DNA of 64,000 bases, from the IMG/VR virus record IMGVR_UViG_3300032007_000028. One strand, given 5' to 3'. The notes below the pieces were generated by a model. The model did no database searches and was not told the origin of the DNA. It worked only from the letters and a program-made list of their open reading frames with translations. The position numbers were made by a program, and so were the translations under genes. Source of the DNA: a virus. Its lineage: Duplodnaviria > Caudoviricetes. The stretch's first letter is position 1. Each line of letters begins with the position of its first letter. Below are positions 2,256 to 18,352 of this stretch, piece after piece.

Positions 2256-3295
2256 AATTGCGCGTCGCACAGACTAGCGATTTCAATCGTCGCCGTCATG
2301 TGCTGATTAGAATCGTTTTTCATTTTGTATTTGATGTCGTTGACCTTCGTCACCAGAGACGAGAACACCTTGCATGAATTCTCAATGCCTGTTGCGTACT
2401 TGACGCATCGCGAATCGTTTTCGTGTTTTGGGTTGAGTACGGTCGTAGGTAGTTTCGTATAGGAAATATCCCCAAACAGACAATACTTATTCAAGTCTAG
2501 AAGAAAGCCAATATACTGGTCGATGAACGTCTTCGTTTCGATTCCGTCCATGTGCAGTCTTTCCATAGTCGCTATGACAGAACGTCTATCACCGTCGATG
2601 ATTGCGTTGGTCACGTCGAACATCGCGTCGTATGACACGTTGCCCAACACCTTGAGAACGTTGTTCATAGACAGGTCGACGCTGAAACTGGCGCACTTCT
2701 CTAGCATGGATATCGCGTCTCTGACACCACCATTGGCAAGCTTTGCAATATAGTCGCAAGCGTCTTCGCAATTTAAGAAGCCTTCGCACTTCGAGATGTA
2801 AATCAATCTGTCCCTTACCTGCTCAAACGGAACGCGAGTCAGCGTGAATTTCATCAAACGATTCATAATCGTCGCGGGAATCTTCTGAGGGTCCGTGGTG
2901 CAGAAAATGAATATCGTATACTTGGGTGGCTCCTCTAGGCACTTCAGAAACGCGTTCCATGCGGCCGTTGTGAGCATATGGGCTTCGTCTACGATAATCG
3001 TCTTGTATTCAGAGTCGAGACTTCTTGAGCTTGCTTCGAATATGAGAGAACGCACGTTGTCAACACCGTTGTTCGACGCACCGTCTACTTCGATTGGACT
3101 GCCTTTGCCTTTGTTTATGCAAGATGAGAAGATTCTCGCAAGAGTGGTTTTGCCATCGCCTGAGGGACCACAAAACAAATATGCGTTCTTAAACGTGTTC
3201 GTTTCAAGTTGATGCTTGAGAATCCGAATCGTGTACTCCTGAGAGAGAACGCTTTCGAAATTCTGCGGTCGATATTTTACTGCTAGTGATGGCAT
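2252..3295 (-). CDS. dnaX: DNA polymerase III gamma/tau clamp-loader ATPase
   Basis: LAVKYRPQ, GPSGDGKTT, EVDGASNNGVD, DEAHML, NAFLKCLEEPP, GGVRDAIS. Confidence 0.93.
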   Translation of the reverse strand: MPSLAVKYRPQNFESVLSQEYTIRILKHQLETNTFKNAYLFCGPSGDGKTTLARIFSSCINKGKGSPIEVDGASNNGVDNVRSLIFEASSRSLDSEYKTIIVDEAHMLTTAAWNAFLKCLEEPPKYTIFIFCTTDPQKIPATIMNRLMKFTLTRVPFEQVRDRLIYISKCEGFLNCEDACDYIAKLANGGVRDAISMLEKCASFSVDLSMNNVLKVLGNVSYDAMFDVTNAIIDGDRRSVIATMERLHMDGIETKTFIDQYIGFLLDLNKYCLFGDISYTKLPTTVLNPKHENDSRCVKYATGIENSCKVFSSLVTKVNDIKYKMKNDSNQHMTATIEIASLCDAQL

Positions 3296-3305
3296 CTGTT
3301 GTCTC

Positions 3306-3656
3306 CTACAATTCTTTTTCTACGCTGACCATGTTTTCTGGCAGCCAGCCTTCCCACATTGCTTTCGTCTCGTCTTCAGCGACGCTTACGACGTGAATCA
3401 TCGTACCAAGCTTACGGTCGACTTCGACTCGCATTCTGTCGCACTTTGGGACCGTACCATGATTCCAGTTTCTGTACAGAACGTCATTCGACTTCGGGTC
3501 GAGCAACGAGCGGTCTATATTTATTATATAATAGCGACCTATCGAAATCGACAGATTCGTCTTCTTTGGTATGAAATACGTTTGCGTATCCGCGTCATAA
3601 TTCGCGAGAGAGGCCACGCTTACCTTGAGAAGTTGCTTTTCCGCTTGCTTACTCAT
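3306..3656 (-). CDS. hypothetical protein
   Basis: 116-aa ORF coupled to neighbours. Confidence 0.7.
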   Translation of the reverse strand: MSKQAEKQLLKVSVASLANYDADTQTYFIPKKTNLSISIGRYYIINIDRSLLDPKSNDVLYRNWNHGTVPKCDRMRVEVDRKLGTMIHVVSVAEDETKAMWEGWLPENMVSVEKEL

Positions 3657-4533
3657 CTCTTTCGTCCACGACGTAGGTGGCTATGATGTCTGCCGCATGC
3701 AATAGCGAAACAAGACCATACTTGCTCATAATCGCTGTAATCTCCTCTACCCCATATTTATCTGAATACGAGTACTGATTGACGAGTGCTACAGTTTCTT
3801 CTTTCGTAAGAGGGATATACGCGCTGATTGCATAGTAAGCGGAGAAGCCCTTCGAGCCAATGACGTCCCTTGTGGACGAGTCTACGACTTTATACACTTT
3901 CTTGGACACCCAATCGAAGTTGCCCAACTCGTCGTGCTTCTTCCCAGCGTCGCTGTAGACCTTCTCGTTTTTGATTCCCTCTTCGTAAATCTGCGCTCTG
4001 CACACATCGTGTAACAATGCGACGATTGCGATTGACACATCATCGTATTTGTGTTGAGATGGAACGGGCAGATTGGCGATGAATCTGCGACATGCGATTC
4101 TATATGCGGCCGCTTCTGCGTCCGTATGGATTCCGATGACGCTCATCAACTCGTCCTCAAGTTCTTCTTCGTTCATGCCAACGACGGAGATGCAGTGTTG
4201 CATAACGGCATTGAATCCCATACGCCCTTCATTCACGTCGTCGAGGAGAACGCTTTGATATCGAGAGACGTTCTCCAACTGAGCGTCGTCTTTGAACACG
4301 TTGGTCATCACGTAACCATCACCGAAGTTTTTGTTGAGGTTGAGCATGACGTCGTATACGTTGAGCGAGTGCTGTAATAAGCCACCTTCGAACGAGCAGT
4401 GATACTGCGTAGATGCTGGTGCTTTGAAGAAGCCGATAGTCTCTAAGTAGTTCAATAATCCATCGATGTCGCAATCGTTTCTTTTGTCTGCGATTCCATA
4501 AAGAAGTTCTTTGAATCTGTCTTTGTTGCTCAT
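3649..4533 (-). CDS. HD-domain phosphohydrolase with internal insertion
   Basis: FFKAPASTQYH..FEGGLLQHSLNVY, ALLHDVC, LHAAD; start MSNKD after AAGGAG SD. Confidence 0.8.
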   Translation of the reverse strand: MSNKDRFKELLYGIADKRNDCDIDGLLNYLETIGFFKAPASTQYHCSFEGGLLQHSLNVYDVMLNLNKNFGDGYVMTNVFKDDAQLENVSRYQSVLLDDVNEGRMGFNAVMQHCISVVGMNEEELEDELMSVIGIHTDAEAAAYRIACRRFIANLPVPSQHKYDDVSIAIVALLHDVCRAQIYEEGIKNEKVYSDAGKKHDELGNFDWVSKKVYKVVDSSTRDVIGSKGFSAYYAISAYIPLTKEETVALVNQYSYSDKYGVEEITAIMSKYGLVSLLHAADIIATYVVDERDE

Positions 4534-12374: not shown

Positions 12375-12778
12375 TCGTTAGCGGCCTCGACGCCGGTGTC
12401 TTCCATTATCTTCTTTATGTTCTTGCTTAATTTGACATACCCATTTGCGATTGCGTCGTCGATGTCGATGATGACGAGTGCGCTTTTCTCCATGAGTCTC
12501 TGCATCTCACTGCTTGCATGTGCGTAATAGTCTGCGATGAGTGAATAGGTGAACACCAAGTGCCTCGTTGCGGCCAATCTGAGAAATGCCTTCTCATCGT
12601 CGGAAACTGAAGACGCGTTGATATCGGCCAACAACTCCTGATATTTACCGACATTGACAAGAGAGTCCAATCTAGGACACTCGGCCTTTGGCAAATACTG
12701 AGGTACTCCGACCTTCGTCGTGTATTTCTTATCTTCTTCAGTCTCTTCGATTCCAAATAAATTTATTTCAGTTCTCAT
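12371..12778 (-). CDS. helical accessory protein of phage glycosyltransferase DNA-modification clusters
   Basis: KYT.K...PQY.P, FL..AA.RH..F.Y..IADYYAHA..EMQ.LME.SALVIID.DDAI..GYV.L pattern. Confidence 0.65.
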   Translation of the reverse strand: MRTEINLFGIEETEEDKKYTTKVGVPQYLPKAECPRLDSLVNVGKYQELLADINASSVSDDEKAFLRLAATRHLVFTYSLIADYYAHASSEMQRLMEKSALVIIDIDDAIANGYVKLSKNIKKIMEDTGVEAAND

Positions 12779-12824
12779 GGTGTTCCTTTCACTCCAATAT
12801 TTATGATATGATTCTATTATACAC

Positions 12825-13922
12825 TCAGTTATTAAGACATTGCAATATGAACTCCCTCGTCGACTCGATGTGCTCTTCGCAAATCTTATCGATGGCCTGT
12901 TCTTCAGTCATGCCTTTGCCCATGAACGCTTTCTTGTCCGTCTGCAATTCGTTACAGTATACATTGTAGTACCAACGTTCGGATACATCGGCGTCGCATT
13001 TGAACGGAACGACGCAGTGTTCAGCAATACAAGTGGACATTACGTAAGACAATCTCTTTGCGACCTCGTCTGCGTTCTCTTTTGGGCATTCGCCAATCAA
13101 TTCGTCGTGAACACCTATCAACATTCTGAATCCAAGACGATTCAGTTCTTCGTCGTTGTGAATCTTAATCATGGCGACTTTCGTCATCGTGGCCGCACCG
13201 CCTTGAATGCGAGCGTTTACGCACTGACGTTCGGAACGAGATATGAGATTGCTGTTCGAATGAATGGAGATGCCATCTTCCTTCGCGTCGTTTATCACAT
13301 TGACGACAGACCTTCTGTCCTTCGCTTTATGCAACTTTTCAAGAAGCGCACTCTCGACTTTCGGGTCTATCGAACGATAAGAGCATCCGATGATTGGATT
13401 AAACGTCGATGCGTTGTCGTTCATATACTTTATAGAGTATTCGGGAAGAAGCAAATCAGGCAATCTACGACGACGACCATACCAGTCTTCGACGTAGCCA
13501 GTTTTACGAGCACTGGACATCGTATCGTCCGTCCACTTTCTCACCTTGGGAAATCCGTTATAGAATCCGTCGATGATGCTTTGTGCTTCCTTCTGGTCGC
13601 ATTCCAGTCTCTGAGCGATGCCTTGAACCGACATCCCATAGATAATTCCAAGTAGAAGACCCTTTACGGAAGACCTTCTCTTTGCGCCAGCTTCGCTTCG
13701 TTTCCCTGTCTTGGGATTGAACTCAAGATTATCCTCGTAATTATTGTGATATACACGAGACGCAATCGTTGCATAAAGGTCTTTTCCCTGTTTGTATGCA
13801 TCAATCATCGCCTCGTCTTTCGCGTAATTGGCTAATAGTCTAGGTTCCTGTTGCGGCTTCTCTTACGAGAAGTCGCTACCGACAAGAACGTAAGGCGTTC
13901 TTACAGTAATCGACTTCTTCAT
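12825..13922 (-). CDS. polA: family A DNA polymerase, C-terminal piece (motifs A, B, C), with in-frame TAA and 12-nt gap at 13854-13865
   Basis: AAGGAGG SD then MKKSITVRTPYVLVGSDFS* EKP QQEPRLLA..MIDAYKQGKDLY; motif B RSSVKGLLLGIIYG; NARIQG; motif C VHDELI. Confidence 0.88.
13853..13876 (-). promoter_or_regulatory. RNA hairpin with GUAA tetraloop containing the in-frame stop of polA motif A
   Basis: GCG-A-CTTCTC [GTAA] GAGAAG-C-CGC on - strand: 9 bp with one A.C mismatch. Confidence 0.8.
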
Positions 13923-14000
13923 AAATCTGCCCTCCTTTCTTTGCGATGCGAACATGTGCATCGTCTTGTAGAAGTATACATTATTATACTACTTGTTGCA

Positions 14001-15671
14001 CTACATTGCATCTTGCGCACACTTAAGAATATATTTTTTGGAACCTGCTCCATAAATGCACGCAAACGAATTTTCCTTCAACTCTGCGTATTTGCTAGGC
14101 TGTCTGTTTACCACGCTTCTGTCCTTCAGCACCCACCATTTATTGGGGCCGGTGTATCCTATGAACTTCATGCCAGACGCCTCGTACCCTTTTCCATCGA
14201 ATTTGTTGAAATCGCAATAGCTGAATATCTCTTCGGGTCTGTTATTCTTTATAAAATGATGCAGTAGTTTCGAAACGCCGCCAACGACAATGTTGTTGGA
14301 ACCGGGACAACCTCTTATTATTTCCCAGCAAGAGTCGTTCTTCAGATTGCGATTGTATTTCGTTTTGCTGAACGACATCAACTGAACCAGATTCCCCTCG
14401 TGAAACAGACCATACGTTATCTGAGCGTTTCTGTGCCCTTGAAGATGGTTCGATTCGTTGAATATCTTCGCTTCCGCATTCGAAATCTCGCGTATTTCGC
14501 ACTGTCTGGCGTAGATTTTATTCTCATATTTGCCAACTGCGATGGAGAGCATCGATTTTATGACCTTGCACTTCGTCTCGTCTTCCCATTCGTGTTGATA
14601 TATCTGAATCAGACGAATTCCGTTCTTCTCGGCCATCTTAGCCTTGTTCAGATGATAGTTTTTATTCGCGATGCATAGACTCGAATGCCAATACGTTCCG
14701 TTTACCTCGATGCCTATCTTCTTTTCTGGCAAATACGCGTCCATTTCGTAGTAGTTGCCATCGTCGTCTCGAAGAATGCTCTTGCAGTTCGTTATTATCT
14801 GCCCATCGTAGATGCTTTTCAGAAATCCGATTACGTTCTGTTCCAGTATGGACGTTCCCTTCGAGTGATTCGTTCTCGCATACTCGTCGAACAACGGAAT
14901 ATATTTCTTACTGACATATGTATAAGTGTCCGATTTTCTAATCACGTCATCTATAATGGGTGTTTCGTTTCGATAATAACAATACGCGGTAAGTTGTTTC
15001 CTCGTCAGATTCTTTACGGCTATATAACCAATCGAATCGTAATAATCATCTCGTGCTTTTATTCGTTCCGCAAAGGACAGCTTCTTCGCTTTTCCCGGCA
15101 CAAAACCTTCCGGCACCTTATCATCCATCTTCAGTCTTATGTCGTTGACACCGTCAGTATACCAGAACAGTTTTCTCTTCATCGCGCATATCTTATACAC
15201 ATCTTTGTACAAGGTGCCTTTTACGAACCCGTCTGGTATCTCTTCATTCGGCCCAAAGTACTTATTGACTTTACCATTGTTGTACAGCGTCAATCCTGCC
15301 GTCGTCGATATGCCCATTCCAATTGAGTACCCGTTCTCGATTGCGTCGCCGGGCTTTATGAGTGTCTTCTTTTTCCCGTTGTTTACCCATACGTACCCTG
15401 ATGTACCGCTTCCGTAGTTGGTTCTGCCAGGATGATAATCTGCTGGTGCGCAACAGTCTTCAGACAACTGCAAATCGTCTTTTCCGTTTGTATACCAATG
15501 CTTCTCTAATTTAGGCGACCGCACGTCGAACAGCTTCAATGCGATAGCTCGCTCCTTCTTTGTGACACCATATTTCGAACATATATATTCGATACTGTGA
15601 ATCGCCAAGTCTTTCTTGAAGTCTTCTCCGTTTTCCGACTGCACGATGCCAAGAATTTTCTTCTTACCCAT
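14001..15671 (-). mobile_element. free-standing homing endonuclease (Hef-like, PD-(D/E)XK/Vsr-type) with N-terminal W.TNG repeats
   Basis: Repeats WYTNG/WVNNG/LYNNG/WYTDG..P.GF..G; EMDAYLPEKKIGIEVNGTYWHS; IYARQC..NHLQG..GGVSKLL..SYCD. Confidence 0.8.
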
Positions 15672-15819
15672 TTATGCCATAATATGTCTCTAATATAAGA
15701 CGAACGACGTCGGACATCGTAACGTCTTTTTTGAATGCGTCTTCGCGAATGCGTTCTCTCAATTCCGACGATATTCTCATATTGAACTGCACTTCGTTTT
15801 TGTTCTGCTGTTTGGACAT
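15664..15819 (-). CDS. ribbon-helix-helix DNA-binding protein (51 aa, absent from ORF track)
   Basis: MSKQQNKNEVQFNMRISSELRERIREDAFKKDVTMSDVVRLILETYYGING; AAGGAG SD; overlaps the endonuclease start. Confidence 0.8.
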   Translation of the reverse strand: MSKQQNKNEVQFNMRISSELRERIREDAFKKDVTMSDVVRLILETYYGING

Positions 15820-15847
15820 ATTTCTCCTTTCATATTACTTTAGCACA

Positions 15848-17449
15848 TTATTTTTGTAATACCGTATTACACTTAGTATACAATAGTACGTAGTCGTCGA
15901 ACTCTTTCGTGTCGATAATCGTAAGAATATCGCCGTCATCCGTTTTAATCGTATCTCCTACTTTTACGAGTTTTGACGAAACCCATTCGTCATTTACGCA
16001 AATTTCGTCGATTTTTGATACCTTGAAGCAATCATCATCTTCTTCTACTTGATGATAATTAGTCGAAGCTTTGAACATCATTCGTATTTCGTGATTCTTT
16101 GAAGGAATTTGTTGTAGATTCGGATTCGAACACGAGAAACGACCCGTAGCGGCCCCAACTTGATTGAACGAGCAGTGAACTCTCCCGTCCTTCTTGTTGA
16201 CGTAGTCTGGAATCTTGTCGATGAAGTTGTTTACGAGAGTCTTGAACGTCTTTCTTTCGAGAAGAATGCGTAAAATCGGAACGTCTCGCTCCTCTAGAAT
16301 CTGAGGAATCGTATTCTTATCAGTGCTTCTTGGTTTCTTTCTGTTGATTGGCGGAATCTTGAGGATGTCATAAATAAGAATCGCAAGTTGTGTCGGGGAT
16401 TCCAGATTGATTGGGTCTTCCAACTGCTCGGACTTCGTTTTGTTACCTATCAACGTCTGTGCGTCTTTCGTTTTTCGCCAATTTTCGATTAACGGCCTTA
16501 ATTTTGACATTTCGTCCATTATCGGCTTATCGTAATCGTCTAGAATCTTATGATACTTCACGCCAAGTCTGCTCGCGTAGTCTAAGTCCACTTCGATTCC
16601 GCAGTCTTCCATTTCCATGACGACTCTGAGACACGGAAACTCGACGTTCATCAGCAAATTGTAGATTCGTTCATTTTCCTTCTTCTCGAATTCGTGAAGT
16701 TGATACGAATAGAGCTGATAGGTCATCAACGCGTCGGTAGCAGAGTACAACGCGAACAGTTCTGGGTCGAAAATCGCATAACTTTCCTTCTCAAACAGAT
16801 GTTCAATGTCGTATTTGCCGTGGTCTTTGTCGATGTGAAGAATGTATTGTTCCTTAAGACTCGCAGGCTCGTTTTCGTTGAGAATCTGAGACGCAATCAT
16901 CGTATCCCAATGATACGGCACGTCGATTCCGCAAGTATGTCTGATGACGCGAATGTCGAATGATGCGTTGTGATAGATGACTTTGACTTTTGCTTCTACG
17001 ACACGGGAAAATTCCTCTTTGAGGTCGTTTTCCGTAAGTTGATTTGGCAAACGCTCGTTCGTCACACGATTGACGTGATGAATGGGAACGTACGCCTGCT
17101 TTTCATTGGGTGTATAAAGACATGCACCCATAATCAAACAGGTCAAAGGGTCCAACGAGTTGTTGGTTTCCGTGTCGAGCGCAAGAACGCCGTTTTCGAT
17201 GCACTTAGAAATGTATCTGTGCAGTTCGTCTCTGTCACGAATGACCTCTGTGTCGTCTTTGTGTTTACCTAAAATGGCCATGACGTTTGATTCAATCACG
17301 GCCATTTTATCTTCCAATGACAACTTCGATGAAATCTTCTTCGTGCTAGAGACTTTTTTGGGGGAATTGATTTTGTCGAGAAGTTTCTCTGTGTCGTTGA
17401 CTGGCAACGAGAACTCCTCGCCCCACAATAAACTCTCTTTAGCTGTCAT
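15848..17449 (-). CDS. polA: family A DNA polymerase, N-terminal piece (3'-5' exonuclease, thumb, palm start) with Hint-like tail
   Basis: ALDTET, HNASFD, YSATDA exonuclease motifs; ATGRFSCSNPNLQQIP; ends after RMMFKAS with an extra ~70 aa. Confidence 0.9.
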   Translation of the reverse strand: MTAKESLLWGEEFSLPVNDTEKLLDKINSPKKVSSTKKISSKLSLEDKMAVIESNVMAILGKHKDDTEVIRDRDELHRYISKCIENGVLALDTETNNSLDPLTCLIMGACLYTPNEKQAYVPIHHVNRVTNERLPNQLTENDLKEEFSRVVEAKVKVIYHNASFDIRVIRHTCGIDVPYHWDTMIASQILNENEPASLKEQYILHIDKDHGKYDIEHLFEKESYAIFDPELFALYSATDALMTYQLYSYQLHEFEKKENERIYNLLMNVEFPCLRVVMEMEDCGIEVDLDYASRLGVKYHKILDDYDKPIMDEMSKLRPLIENWRKTKDAQTLIGNKTKSEQLEDPINLESPTQLAILIYDILKIPPINRKKPRSTDKNTIPQILEERDVPILRILLERKTFKTLVNNFIDKIPDYVNKKDGRVHCSFNQVGAATGRFSCSNPNLQQIPSKNHEIRMMFKASTNYHQVEEDDDCFKVSKIDEICVNDEWVSSKLVKVGDTIKTDDGDILTIIDTKEFDDYVLLYTKCNTVLQK

Positions 17450-17488
17450 ATCATATATTATATAACGGGTTACGGTATAAGTCTACGA

Positions 17489-18352
17489 TTATTTATAGTC
17501 GTAGGTACGACGGGGTCTTGCGACTGTCGGGTCGTTTGCACCACCAACTGCGGTGTCGAAGCGACGTTGGGGAATCTCTTCCTGAACGGGCTGGCGAGCC
17601 ATGGTCGCGTCGCCCATCACGCTCACGTCTACCTTCGGTTTCTGCTCGGTATATTCGTACTTCGCAGTTTGCTGAGGATAAGTCTGTGTTTGCGTGACTT
17701 TGATTTCCTCGTTGTTGGCTTGAGGCGCATGCTTTGTAAACGTACCCGTTTCTAGAATCTCGTTCATCTCATCGAAGGTACGTTCCATGTACGAATGATG
17801 ATTGAGTTCGAAGCCATCGAAACCAGAGAAGTCTTTCACAAAACCAGCTTCTTCGCTGTACATGGCGGGATTCTTGAACATGATGTCATAAGACACCTTC
17901 ATGTCGCCTTTCGCCCCACGACGAACGACTTTGAAGACGACGTCGCGTAAATCGCCATATTCGCGAAGATAGGATTCGAGCGTCTTTGCGAAGAACGCGG
18001 GACGTTCCCACACCTTGGGGGTGACTGTGACTTTGCCTTGTTCGTCGGTGGCGTATTCGAGCAAGCGAACGAACATTTTGGCAGAGCGTTTTTCACCAGC
18101 TTCGCAAAGAGGGCATTTGCTTAATGGTTCCTTTGCGGTGCGTAAACACGCGATGGTGCGGAACTTATCATCGACTTTGACGCGATGAACGTCGACGAAT
18201 TCGAATTCGTTGGTTGAAGAATAGGCGAATCGAACGATGGCGCTGGATTCGTTGTCAGGAAGAGAGAAGTACCCGACCTTGCGTTCATTGCGATTGCTGG
18301 ATGCACGATTCTCTTCCATGGTTTTGTAGGTTTCGTAAGTGTAGATTCCCAT
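17489..18352 (-). CDS. single-stranded DNA-binding protein (gp32-like)
   Basis: AIVRF, H..C...CPLC Zn site, KVWER, R.GAKGD...Y; start MGIYTY. Confidence 0.75.
   Translation of the reverse strand: MGIYTYETYKTMEENRASSNRNERKVGYFSLPDNESSAIVRFAYSSTNEFEFVDVHRVKVDDKFRTIACLRTAKEPLSKCPLCEAGEKRSAKMFVRLLEYATDEQGKVTVTPKVWERPAFFAKTLESYLREYGDLRDVVFKVVRRGAKGDMKVSYDIMFKNPAMYSEEAGFVKDFSGFDGFELNHHSYMERTFDEMNEILETGTFTKHAPQANNEEIKVTQTQTYPQQTAKYEYTEQKPKVDVSVMGDATMARQPVQEEIPQRRFDTAVGGANDPTVARPRRTYDYK

Follow-up and report, generated by a model that had tools for sequence, protein, structure and literature searches.

A candidate short translational bypass in motif A of a phage DNA polymerase gene split by a homing-endonuclease cassette

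The split polymerase gene and its motif-A junction

The IMG/VR record IMGVR_UViG_3300032007_000028 represents an uncultured phage (Duplodnaviria; Caudoviricetes) of 148,987 bp, estimated to be 99% complete, from which a stretch of 64,000 nucleotides, referred to here as the window, was analysed. The family A DNA polymerase (PolA) gene of this phage lies on the minus strand, as do all window features described below, and is split into an N piece and a C piece by a cassette that carries a free-standing homing endonuclease gene; the C piece is in turn interrupted inside catalytic motif A by a stop codon that opens a 12-nucleotide (nt) gap in the coding sequence. The order of the split gene is the N piece with a tail, the open reading frames (ORFs) of the cassette, and the C piece with its own Shine-Dalgarno (SD) sequence, ATG, and basic leader. 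A first-pass annotation, made from the letters of the window, called PolA the only polymerase in that stretch, and this holds for the whole 148,987-bp record, across which PolB and DnaE were searched for and neither is present.

The N piece (533 amino acids (aa); 15848..17449) contains a 3'-5' exonuclease (Pfam DNA_pol_A_exo1) and the polymerase domain up to IRMMFKAS (residue 462), followed by the tail, a C-terminal extension of 71 residues (463-533; 15851..16063) that has no counterpart in intact polymerases. The Pfam profile DNA_pol_A is matched at positions 23-152 by the N piece and at positions 161-380 by the C piece, from QQEPR onward (E 8.5e-54), and the motif-A strand with the catalytic Asp is the sole part that falls between the two match segments.

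This missing strand is encoded at the head of the C piece. An SD sequence, AAGGAGG (13931..13937, read from the sequence), precedes an ATG at 13922-13920, which opens a leader (13866..13922) consisting of the basic extension MKKSITVRT (9 residues, 13922-13896) and PYVLVGSDFS, which includes the catalytic Asp and forms the first half of motif A. The reading frame from ATG 13922 spans 19 codons, MKKSITVRTPYVLVGSDFS, ending in VGSDFS, and its last sense codon, TCG (Ser19; 13866..13868), is designated the take-off codon. It is followed by the coding gap TAA GAG AAG CCG (13854..13865), in which the stop TAA occupies 13865-13863 and the proposed landing triplet CCG occupies 13856-13854. CCG is the first NCG triplet downstream of the take-off codon, as read from the sequence, and it matches the take-off UCG at positions 2-3, with a C:A mismatch at the first position. 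The coding sequence resumes at 13853 with CAA CAG GAA CCT AGA (QQEPR; QQEPRLLANY...) in an unchanged frame that stays open to the stop at 12825, and this remainder of the C piece (12825..13853; Pfam DNA_pol_A) covers the second half of motif A as well as motifs B and C. The coordinates and letters of all these elements, from the SD sequence to the in-frame QQEPR, had been given correctly in the first-pass annotation. No ATG, GTG, or TTG occurs from the gap to the ATG at 13808, which lies after QQEPR, and none is conserved there in relatives; gene calling starts the C piece at ATG 13808, and so without motif A.

Skipping the 12 nt yields DFSQQEPR, which matches intact relatives, including P0012 (61-69% identical). 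P0012, encoded on L073, a syntenic contig of 150.6 kb, is the closest intact relative, with 69% identity to the N piece (up to ...MF.A) and 61% to the C piece. Its junction reads GGC TAC GTC CTT TGT GGC GCC GAC TTC AGT CAG CAG GAA CCG, with neither tail, leader, nor insert; its motif has the DFSQQEPR form that had been expected at first pass. Motif A is contiguous in every intact relative examined.

Related junctions at the same codon

Relatives of the junction were collected by leader-based pattern scans of IMG/VR and JGI metagenomes and by a second scan with the pattern D[FY]S, a stop, 2 to 12 free bases, and QQEP, in which the landing triplet was left free. Hits in L037, L039, L051, L067, L068, and L069, which come without SD sequence, leader, or polymerase context, were excluded as false. 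Both scan types together gave 35 distinct true junctions, each with a stop and a shift of 5, 6, 7, 9, 12, or 15 nt at the same codon. The first-pass annotation had proposed to check homologues for the stop and gap; within this set, the length of 12 nt is seen in the window and in L022, a related strain described below.

The triplet that directly precedes the point of resumption is a Ser codon (TCN) in 29 of the 35, against a chance expectation of about 1/16: in all 14 junctions with a 7-nt shift, in nine of the 11 with a 6-nt shift (the other two have TTG), in three of the four with a 9-nt shift (the fourth has GCT), and in all three with a 15-nt shift. The single 5-nt junction has GCG, and both 12-nt junctions (the window and L022) have CCG. 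The take-off codons of the family are TCT, TCC, or TCG, and the six non-TCN triplets (TTG twice, GCT, GCG, and CCG twice) match the take-off codon at two positions, with the exception of GCT. The CCG/UCG match at positions 2-3, noted at first pass, is correct for this phage, but most of the family shows a better match.

With the insert left out, D[FY]SQQEP is recovered in 35/35 junctions, and TAG, TAA, and TGA each occur as the junction stop. The frame is altered in 15 of the 35, which excludes readthrough in those cases and with it readthrough as the general mechanism. The commonest form among the relatives is TCT TAG G TCA. A stop after the take-off codon is found in 35/35 by construction of the scan, and in five of six distinct junctions of the leader-based scan, where it was not required. 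Leaders of the family K[KR]S[VIL]x.R stand 10-17 residues ahead of the take-off codon in about 35 junctions.

Two variants depart from this pattern, although both follow the same rule. In L023, a 6-nt insert, CAA TGA CGA|GAG, lies two codons further on. L029 (7440-7511, minus strand) has no stop; its sequence GAT TAC TCA GCC TC GCA CAA GAA amounts to a shift of 5 nt between the Ala codons GCC and GCA, in which UCG occupies the A site. The stem-loop of its leader is weak (z -0.48), and the variant could represent either a 'hungry codon' form or a -1 frameshift site. For the 5-nt relatives, a -1 frameshift was considered and ranked below a hop, since motif A would gain residues by it.

Extended SD sites (GGAGGTGAT-like, fully complementary to the 3' end of 16S rRNA) lie ahead of nearly all related C pieces, as in L028 (7753-7775, minus strand) and L033 (3920-3944), and these long sites may compensate at initiation for the stem-loop that starts at codons 2-3. 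A different arrangement is seen in L005 (5930-5950), where the C piece has no ATG, GTG, or TTG and the leader starts at an ATT that overlaps the TAA of an HNH gene (ATTAA); this arrangement suggests termination-coupled initiation at a non-canonical start. Additionally, the PolA N piece of L025 (5001-6755) contains in-frame TGA codons and translates only with TGA read as Trp, so that L025 appears, from its coding sequence, to use a code-4-like genetic code. Its motif-A insert begins with TAA, a true stop in such a code.

RNA structures in the leader and the gap

The leader of the C piece folds into a two-tier 5' stem-loop (13868..13918; -27 kcal/mol, z -6.36), for which the 54 nt from codon 2 to the take-off codon were folded and whose 3' end abuts the take-off codon. 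Covariation was assessed in an ungapped alignment of 12 sequences, as RNAalifold on 14 sequences was uninformative since L038 was out of register. A consensus of 12 pairs is conserved, with 86.8% of cells paired, compared with 36-53% in slid controls, and the covariation score was not reached by any of 500 shuffles (0/500). The pairs 9:57, 15:51, and 24:42 vary on both sides, at synonymous or leader positions. The outer stem is found in 34/34 true junction leaders, and z is below -2 in 31 of the 35 leaders tested, a set that includes one false hit. The leader stem-loop is absent (z -0.46) from L015, which has a split gene without a gap. Neither this stem-loop nor the endonuclease cassette had been described at first pass.

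The second structure is the take-off hairpin GCG-A-CUUCUC[GUAA]GAGAAG-C-CGC (24 nt; 13853..13876), which holds the stop in its GUAA loop. The claim that the extra bases form a hairpin is borne out by a folding energy of -14.3 kcal/mol and a z of -4.07, with 0/200 dinucleotide shuffles folding as well. Analogous take-off hairpins occur in two of the three lineages with a 15-nt shift, L025 (-8.8 kcal/mol) and L038 (-10.2 kcal/mol), whose gap arms differ in sequence, yet are complementary to their own D-F-S codons, the kind of compensatory change that had been proposed as a check. The 3' arm of the hairpin changes along with the D-F-S codons in three of the four long-gap lineages (the window, L025, and L038). 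The GNRA loop, stressed at first pass, turned out to be specific to this phage and not a general feature. Short-gap relatives have no hairpin in the gap, and gaps of 5-9 nt are too small for one.

Maintenance of the element

A related strain, L022, was obtained from another sample (Logan assembly, SRR27608080), with the same gene order and with an identical 24-nt hairpin and insert. Its C piece differs from that of the window at 64 of 1098 positions, and the codon differences comprise 56 synonymous and 7 non-synonymous changes. Since L022 is independently assembled and diverged, the identical hairpin argues that the TAA and insert are not an assembly error, a possibility left standing by the first-pass annotation. 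Within the 15 codons from the gap to the first in-frame ATG (13808), five synonymous and two non-synonymous differences are found, a split which indicates that this stretch is translated in this frame, though it lies beyond the reach of any start codon. The comparison of the two strains shows strong purifying selection downstream of the stop.

A proposed programmed bypass and its alternatives

A stop codon in the A site together with a downstream triplet matching the P-site tRNA is the signature of ribosomal bypass, and neither splicing nor transcription errors nor decay would have any need of it. What can be read directly from the data is how the locus is built, that it is conserved, that the codons match, that the RNA covaries, and that purifying selection acts across the gap; the hop, its drivers, and a protective role are inferred. 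We consider it likely that the junction is a programmed short translational bypass (ribosome hop) within a homing-endonuclease cassette that splits the only DNA polymerase gene of the phage. The bypass had been proposed at first pass for this one sequence, and the roughly 35 junctions with a stop and 5-15 nt, in which the motif is always restored and 29/35 landing triplets encode Ser, speak for it across a family.

Under the proposed mechanism, initiation at ATG 13922 would be followed by translation of 19 codons and a pause during which peptidyl-tRNA-Ser is bound to UCG (P site) and UAA fills the A site. This tRNA would then unpair from the mRNA, the mRNA would slide 12 nt forward, and the tRNA would re-pair with CCG through its two G:C pairs, after which decoding would restart at CAA to give ...VGSDFSQQEPR... 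and a normal motif A. The slowly decoded stop codon would act as a stimulator. The driver would be the leader: once codon 19 occupies the P site, its inner hairpin would have just emerged from the ribosome, and since the 3' arm of the 5' stem-loop extends right up to the take-off codon, zipping up the outer stem would draw the mRNA forward. The hop could additionally be stimulated in this phage by the take-off hairpin, which compacts the gap, and the basic nascent leader peptide is a possible further stimulator, although the gap-free L015 also has a basic leader, so that a role of the leader in hopping is not implied by its presence.

Several points weigh against a programmed bypass or limit it. 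The hop is deduced from the comparison of sequences. Of the two RNA structures that may act on the ribosome, only one can form at a time, because the arm CUUCUC belongs to both the take-off hairpin and the 5' stem-loop. A scan of IMG/VR for further junctions with a 12-nt shift found none. The figure of 29/35 overstates the statistical weight of the Ser triplets, because the junctions are not phylogenetically independent. Furthermore, CCG matches UCG at only two of three positions while 29 of the 35 relatives use a true Ser codon, so the efficiency of landing in this phage may be low, and simple hops over a stop codon in laboratory Escherichia coli constructs are reportedly inefficient. Re-pairing in the P site is, on the other hand, tolerant of mismatches (bioRxiv 10.1101/2022.08.31.505936).

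The alternatives differ in the step at which the gap would be dealt with. Another form of recoding is unlikely: stop readthrough where the insert is in frame, and frameshifting by +1 or -1 elsewhere, would leave one to five extra residues in motif A. The window insert of 12 nt is in frame, so that readthrough of TAA would preserve the frame, the common relative form TCT TAG G TCA superficially resembles stop-stimulated +1 sites, and one of the tRNAs of this phage is unusual in having an anticodon loop of 8 nt; the variable inserts would, however, separate the catalytic Asp from the conserved Glu and Arg of motif A, a motif that is contiguous in every intact relative examined, and the predominance of Ser landing triplets is not predicted. 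No stop anticodon occurs among the 10 tRNAs of the genome, the family makes use of all three stops, and phages are not known to reassign TAA. It is quite unlikely that the polymerase gene is instead damaged or decaying, with the insert a scar of the endonuclease or a hairpin-templated duplication and replication relying on something else. The adjacent codons recur in inverted form as the 3' arm of the insert, which is what a snap-back copying error would produce, the landing match is imperfect, and the phage is known from metagenomes only. Against decay stand the excess of synonymous differences downstream of the stop between the two strains, the retention of a stop and insert at the same codon in about 35 lineages with intact downstream frames, the RNA structure conserved with compensatory changes, and the lack of any other polymerase in a genome that is 99% complete.

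Removal of the 12 nt from the mRNA, by a micro-intron or other RNA processing, or their skipping during transcription, is very unlikely, even though the hairpin that holds the insert is stable (-14.3 kcal/mol). Self-splicing demands far more than 5-15 nt, and size alone excludes a ribozyme for the 12-nt gap; an Rfam search of 12500-17600 gave no match, a weak argument as the same search missed the probable intron in L023. A stop right after the last decoded codon and the matched Ser triplets have no role in splicing, which leaves the codon matching unexplained, and short-gap relatives lack a hairpin in the gap; the micro-intron offered at first pass as an alternative is not supported. Least probable of all is a three-piece enzyme, in which translation would end at TAA with release of a 19-residue peptide, and ribosomes re-initiating shortly after the stop would make the rest. 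PolA is already made in separately translated pieces with tails, and the stop is real, but the stretch from the gap to ATG 13808 is devoid of ATG, GTG, and TTG, and relatives show no conserved start codon there; a free 19-residue strand with the catalytic Asp is structurally implausible, and the landing matches are left unexplained. A programmed bypass is preferred because none of these alternatives accounts for the Ser landing triplets, and each also faces frame-changing inserts, purifying selection, and/or missing start codons.

The homing-endonuclease cassette

The cassette is headed by a ribbon-helix-helix (RHH)-like ORF of 51 aa (15664..15819), which matches NCBIfam NF041793 (ORF56 copy-control family) with an E of 1e-5, below the curated cut-off. 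This ORF overlaps the start of the endonuclease gene by 8 nt, is also called in L022, and may encode a regulator of the endonuclease. The endonuclease gene itself (556 aa; 14001..15671) is free-standing, present as a single copy in the genome, and matches phrog_3339, 'homing endonuclease' (E 3e-66). Its product has a weak match (E 0.021) to PDB 3R3P, the Vsr-like nuclease domain of I-Bth0305I (PMC3239194), and is, judging from this similarity, probably of the Vsr-like EDxHD type.

Three unrelated endonuclease families occupy the same PolA split, namely the phrog_3339 Vsr-like family in the window (14001-15671, minus strand), an HNH family in L005 (5011-5943), and a LAGLIDADG family in L028 (7775-8728, minus strand), and the architecture of tail, leader, and gap is constant whichever endonuclease is present (window, L005, L028). 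No nuclease lies between the PolA pieces of L023 and L025. Tails homologous to that of the window are found in the split genes of L005, L015, L023, L025, and L026 and are absent from the intact PolA of L001-L003, L006-L012, CS32, Flasso, and P0012. Motif-A gaps are confined to split genes that bear the tail and leader, while L015, a more distant split gene, has a tail and basic leader with a motif A free of any insert.

A split intein, or fractured gene, was rejected upon inspection of the aligned tails and leaders since splicing residues are not conserved: the Cys of the window's tail is not conserved in L005, L015, and L025, and the leaders, 9 residues long, contain no His-Asn, the residue after them being Pro, Ile, Asp, or similar. 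As to a group I intron at the large interruption, the strong SD sequence and ATG ahead of the C piece in nearly all lineages argue for its separate translation. The Rfam search over 12500-17600 was run at E <= 1, and its failure to detect the L023 candidate makes it a weak negative.

Interruptions of other kinds were observed in two relatives. L023 has a second interruption (2880-4065) at LLLG|IMYGM in the motif B region, with a 278-aa HNH-like ORF; the next exon has neither SD sequence nor ATG, for which reason this interruption is probably a group I intron (Rfam: no match). In L013 (5100-6000), PolA is interrupted elsewhere, about 70 residues past motif A, and no open frame lies upstream of the match.

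As a unit, the cassette comprises the N-piece tail, the RHH-like gene, the endonuclease gene, a new SD sequence, an ATG that opens a basic leader, a cassette-borne version of the motif-A first half, and the 12-nt insert starting with TAA. By analogy with T4 MobA/gene 60, this insert probably serves to break the endonuclease target in the conserved motif-A DNA and would so shield the cassette-bearing genome, and with a hop the enzyme would gain no residues. The first-pass annotation had envisaged a recoding switch that gates the polymerase; the gene 60 precedent described below suggests protection of the cassette from its own nuclease instead of a regulatory switch.

Comparison with known recoding systems

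Natural programmed bypass in phages and bacteria has essentially been represented by one family, T4 gene 60 and its homologues, and the latest survey, by Manning and Atkins, calls the gene 60 cassette unique and exclusive to topoisomerase genes (bioRxiv 10.1101/2022.08.31.505936). In that system, the MobA insertion splits the gene, with C- and N-terminal extensions on the pieces and its own copy of a conserved segment, and the bypass cassette disrupts the nuclease site; in some cases VSR or GIY-YIG nucleases take the place of MobA (bioRxiv 10.1101/2022.08.31.505936, through which Bonocora et al. 2011 is also cited as a further source on the MobA/gene 60 element).

The PolA junction shares much with this system. 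In both, a free-standing homing endonuclease gene divides a gene essential for replication, and both pieces bear extensions; the second piece carries its own leader and a cassette-borne conserved segment, followed by a take-off codon, a stop, an untranslated gap, and a matched landing codon; the stop is held in a stem-loop, the endonuclease is exchangeable, and the gap lies in a highly conserved active-site motif. The idea, discussed for gene 60, that pairing of the exiting mRNA drives forward movement agrees with the proposed zipping of the leader. The differences are equally clear: the host motif is the topoisomerase Toprim in gene 60 and motif A of PolA here; the gap measures 20-50 nt there and 5-15 nt here; take-off occurs from Gly or Asp at codon 46 there and from Ser, 17-21 codons from the start, here. 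No clear SD-like element lies in the gap of the PolA junctions, and the landing codon is near-cognate in this phage. The 5' stem-loop is not conserved across gene 60 clades, whereas it is the most conserved RNA feature here. Because the host gene is PolA, sequence homology is lacking, and the endonuclease is of the phrog_3339/Vsr-like rather than the MobA-type HNH family, the element is regarded as an analogue and not a member of the MobA element. A likeness between the leader KKSI..R and RRSIK of the gene 60 nascent peptide was dismissed as too short to count as evidence.

Yeast mitochondrial byps offer a second natural parallel. They number dozens per genome, span 27-55 nt, and involve an unassigned sense codon instead of a stop. 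They share with the PolA junctions natural short-to-medium gaps, take-off and landing triplets, a gap stem-loop, and tolerance of imperfect landing, but they are mitochondrial and not linked to homing-endonuclease cassettes.

Laboratory hops in E. coli, in which peptidyl-tRNA moves over a stop or slow codon, are cited in the bypass literature (Weiss et al. 1987; O'Connor et al. 1989). In these hops, peptidyl-tRNA moves a few nt to a matching codon across a slowly decoded A-site codon, and the relatives' TCT TAG TCT is formally identical; they are, however, non-programmed events of low efficiency in synthetic or overexpressed genes, whereas the PolA junction lies in a conserved, essential natural gene with a dedicated leader and RNA structure.

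Finally, the MobE-split nrdA of phage Aeh1 and fractured genes (PMC2677866; PMC3239194) resemble the present locus in having a homing endonuclease between the gene halves, tails that aid their cooperation, and, among the nucleases, the Vsr-like EDxHD type. They differ in that they have no coding gap or bypass, and fractured genes use split-intein splicing, the residues for which are not conserved here. Full-text literature searches found no description of a PolA bypass.

Implications of a possible second bypass family

A broader proposition is evenly balanced between holding and failing: that PolA motif A of many uncultured phages carries a second, independently evolved bypass family, a module of about 90 nt with an extended SD sequence, a basic and covarying leader of 17-21 codons, a Ser take-off codon, a stop, and a gap of 5-15 nt, which would be driven mainly by refolding of the leader and would travel with interchangeable endonucleases as target protection, and in which the near-cognate landing from UCG to CCG, together with the hairpin, would be sufficient for an essential gene. 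If this is true, a second family in another essential gene would make hop cassettes a general strategy by which homing endonucleases disrupt their own target in an invariant active-site motif while leaving the enzyme unharmed. The very short gaps, minimal leader, and conserved 5' stem-loop would likewise provide a small, natural, and varied test bed for what drives forward mRNA movement. Gene callers truncate such polymerases, and because the C piece is called from ATG 13808 and motif A is lost, annotation pipelines misreport an essential enzyme as broken.

Additional features of the genome

Searches of GenBank phages by megablast and blastn returned zero matches to this phage, and distant intact polymerases were the sole matches by tblastn. 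A tRNA search of the genome identified 10 tRNAs, including tRNA-Ser(UGA). In the phage tRNA cluster outside the window, ARAGORN reported a tRNA whose anticodon loop has 8 nt, UGCAAAAA ('caaa', Leu|Phe?), at G000:C1:105613-105688. An expanded anticodon loop is a hallmark of frameshift-suppressor tRNAs, and this tRNA may be a miscall or may be relevant to recoding elsewhere in the genome.

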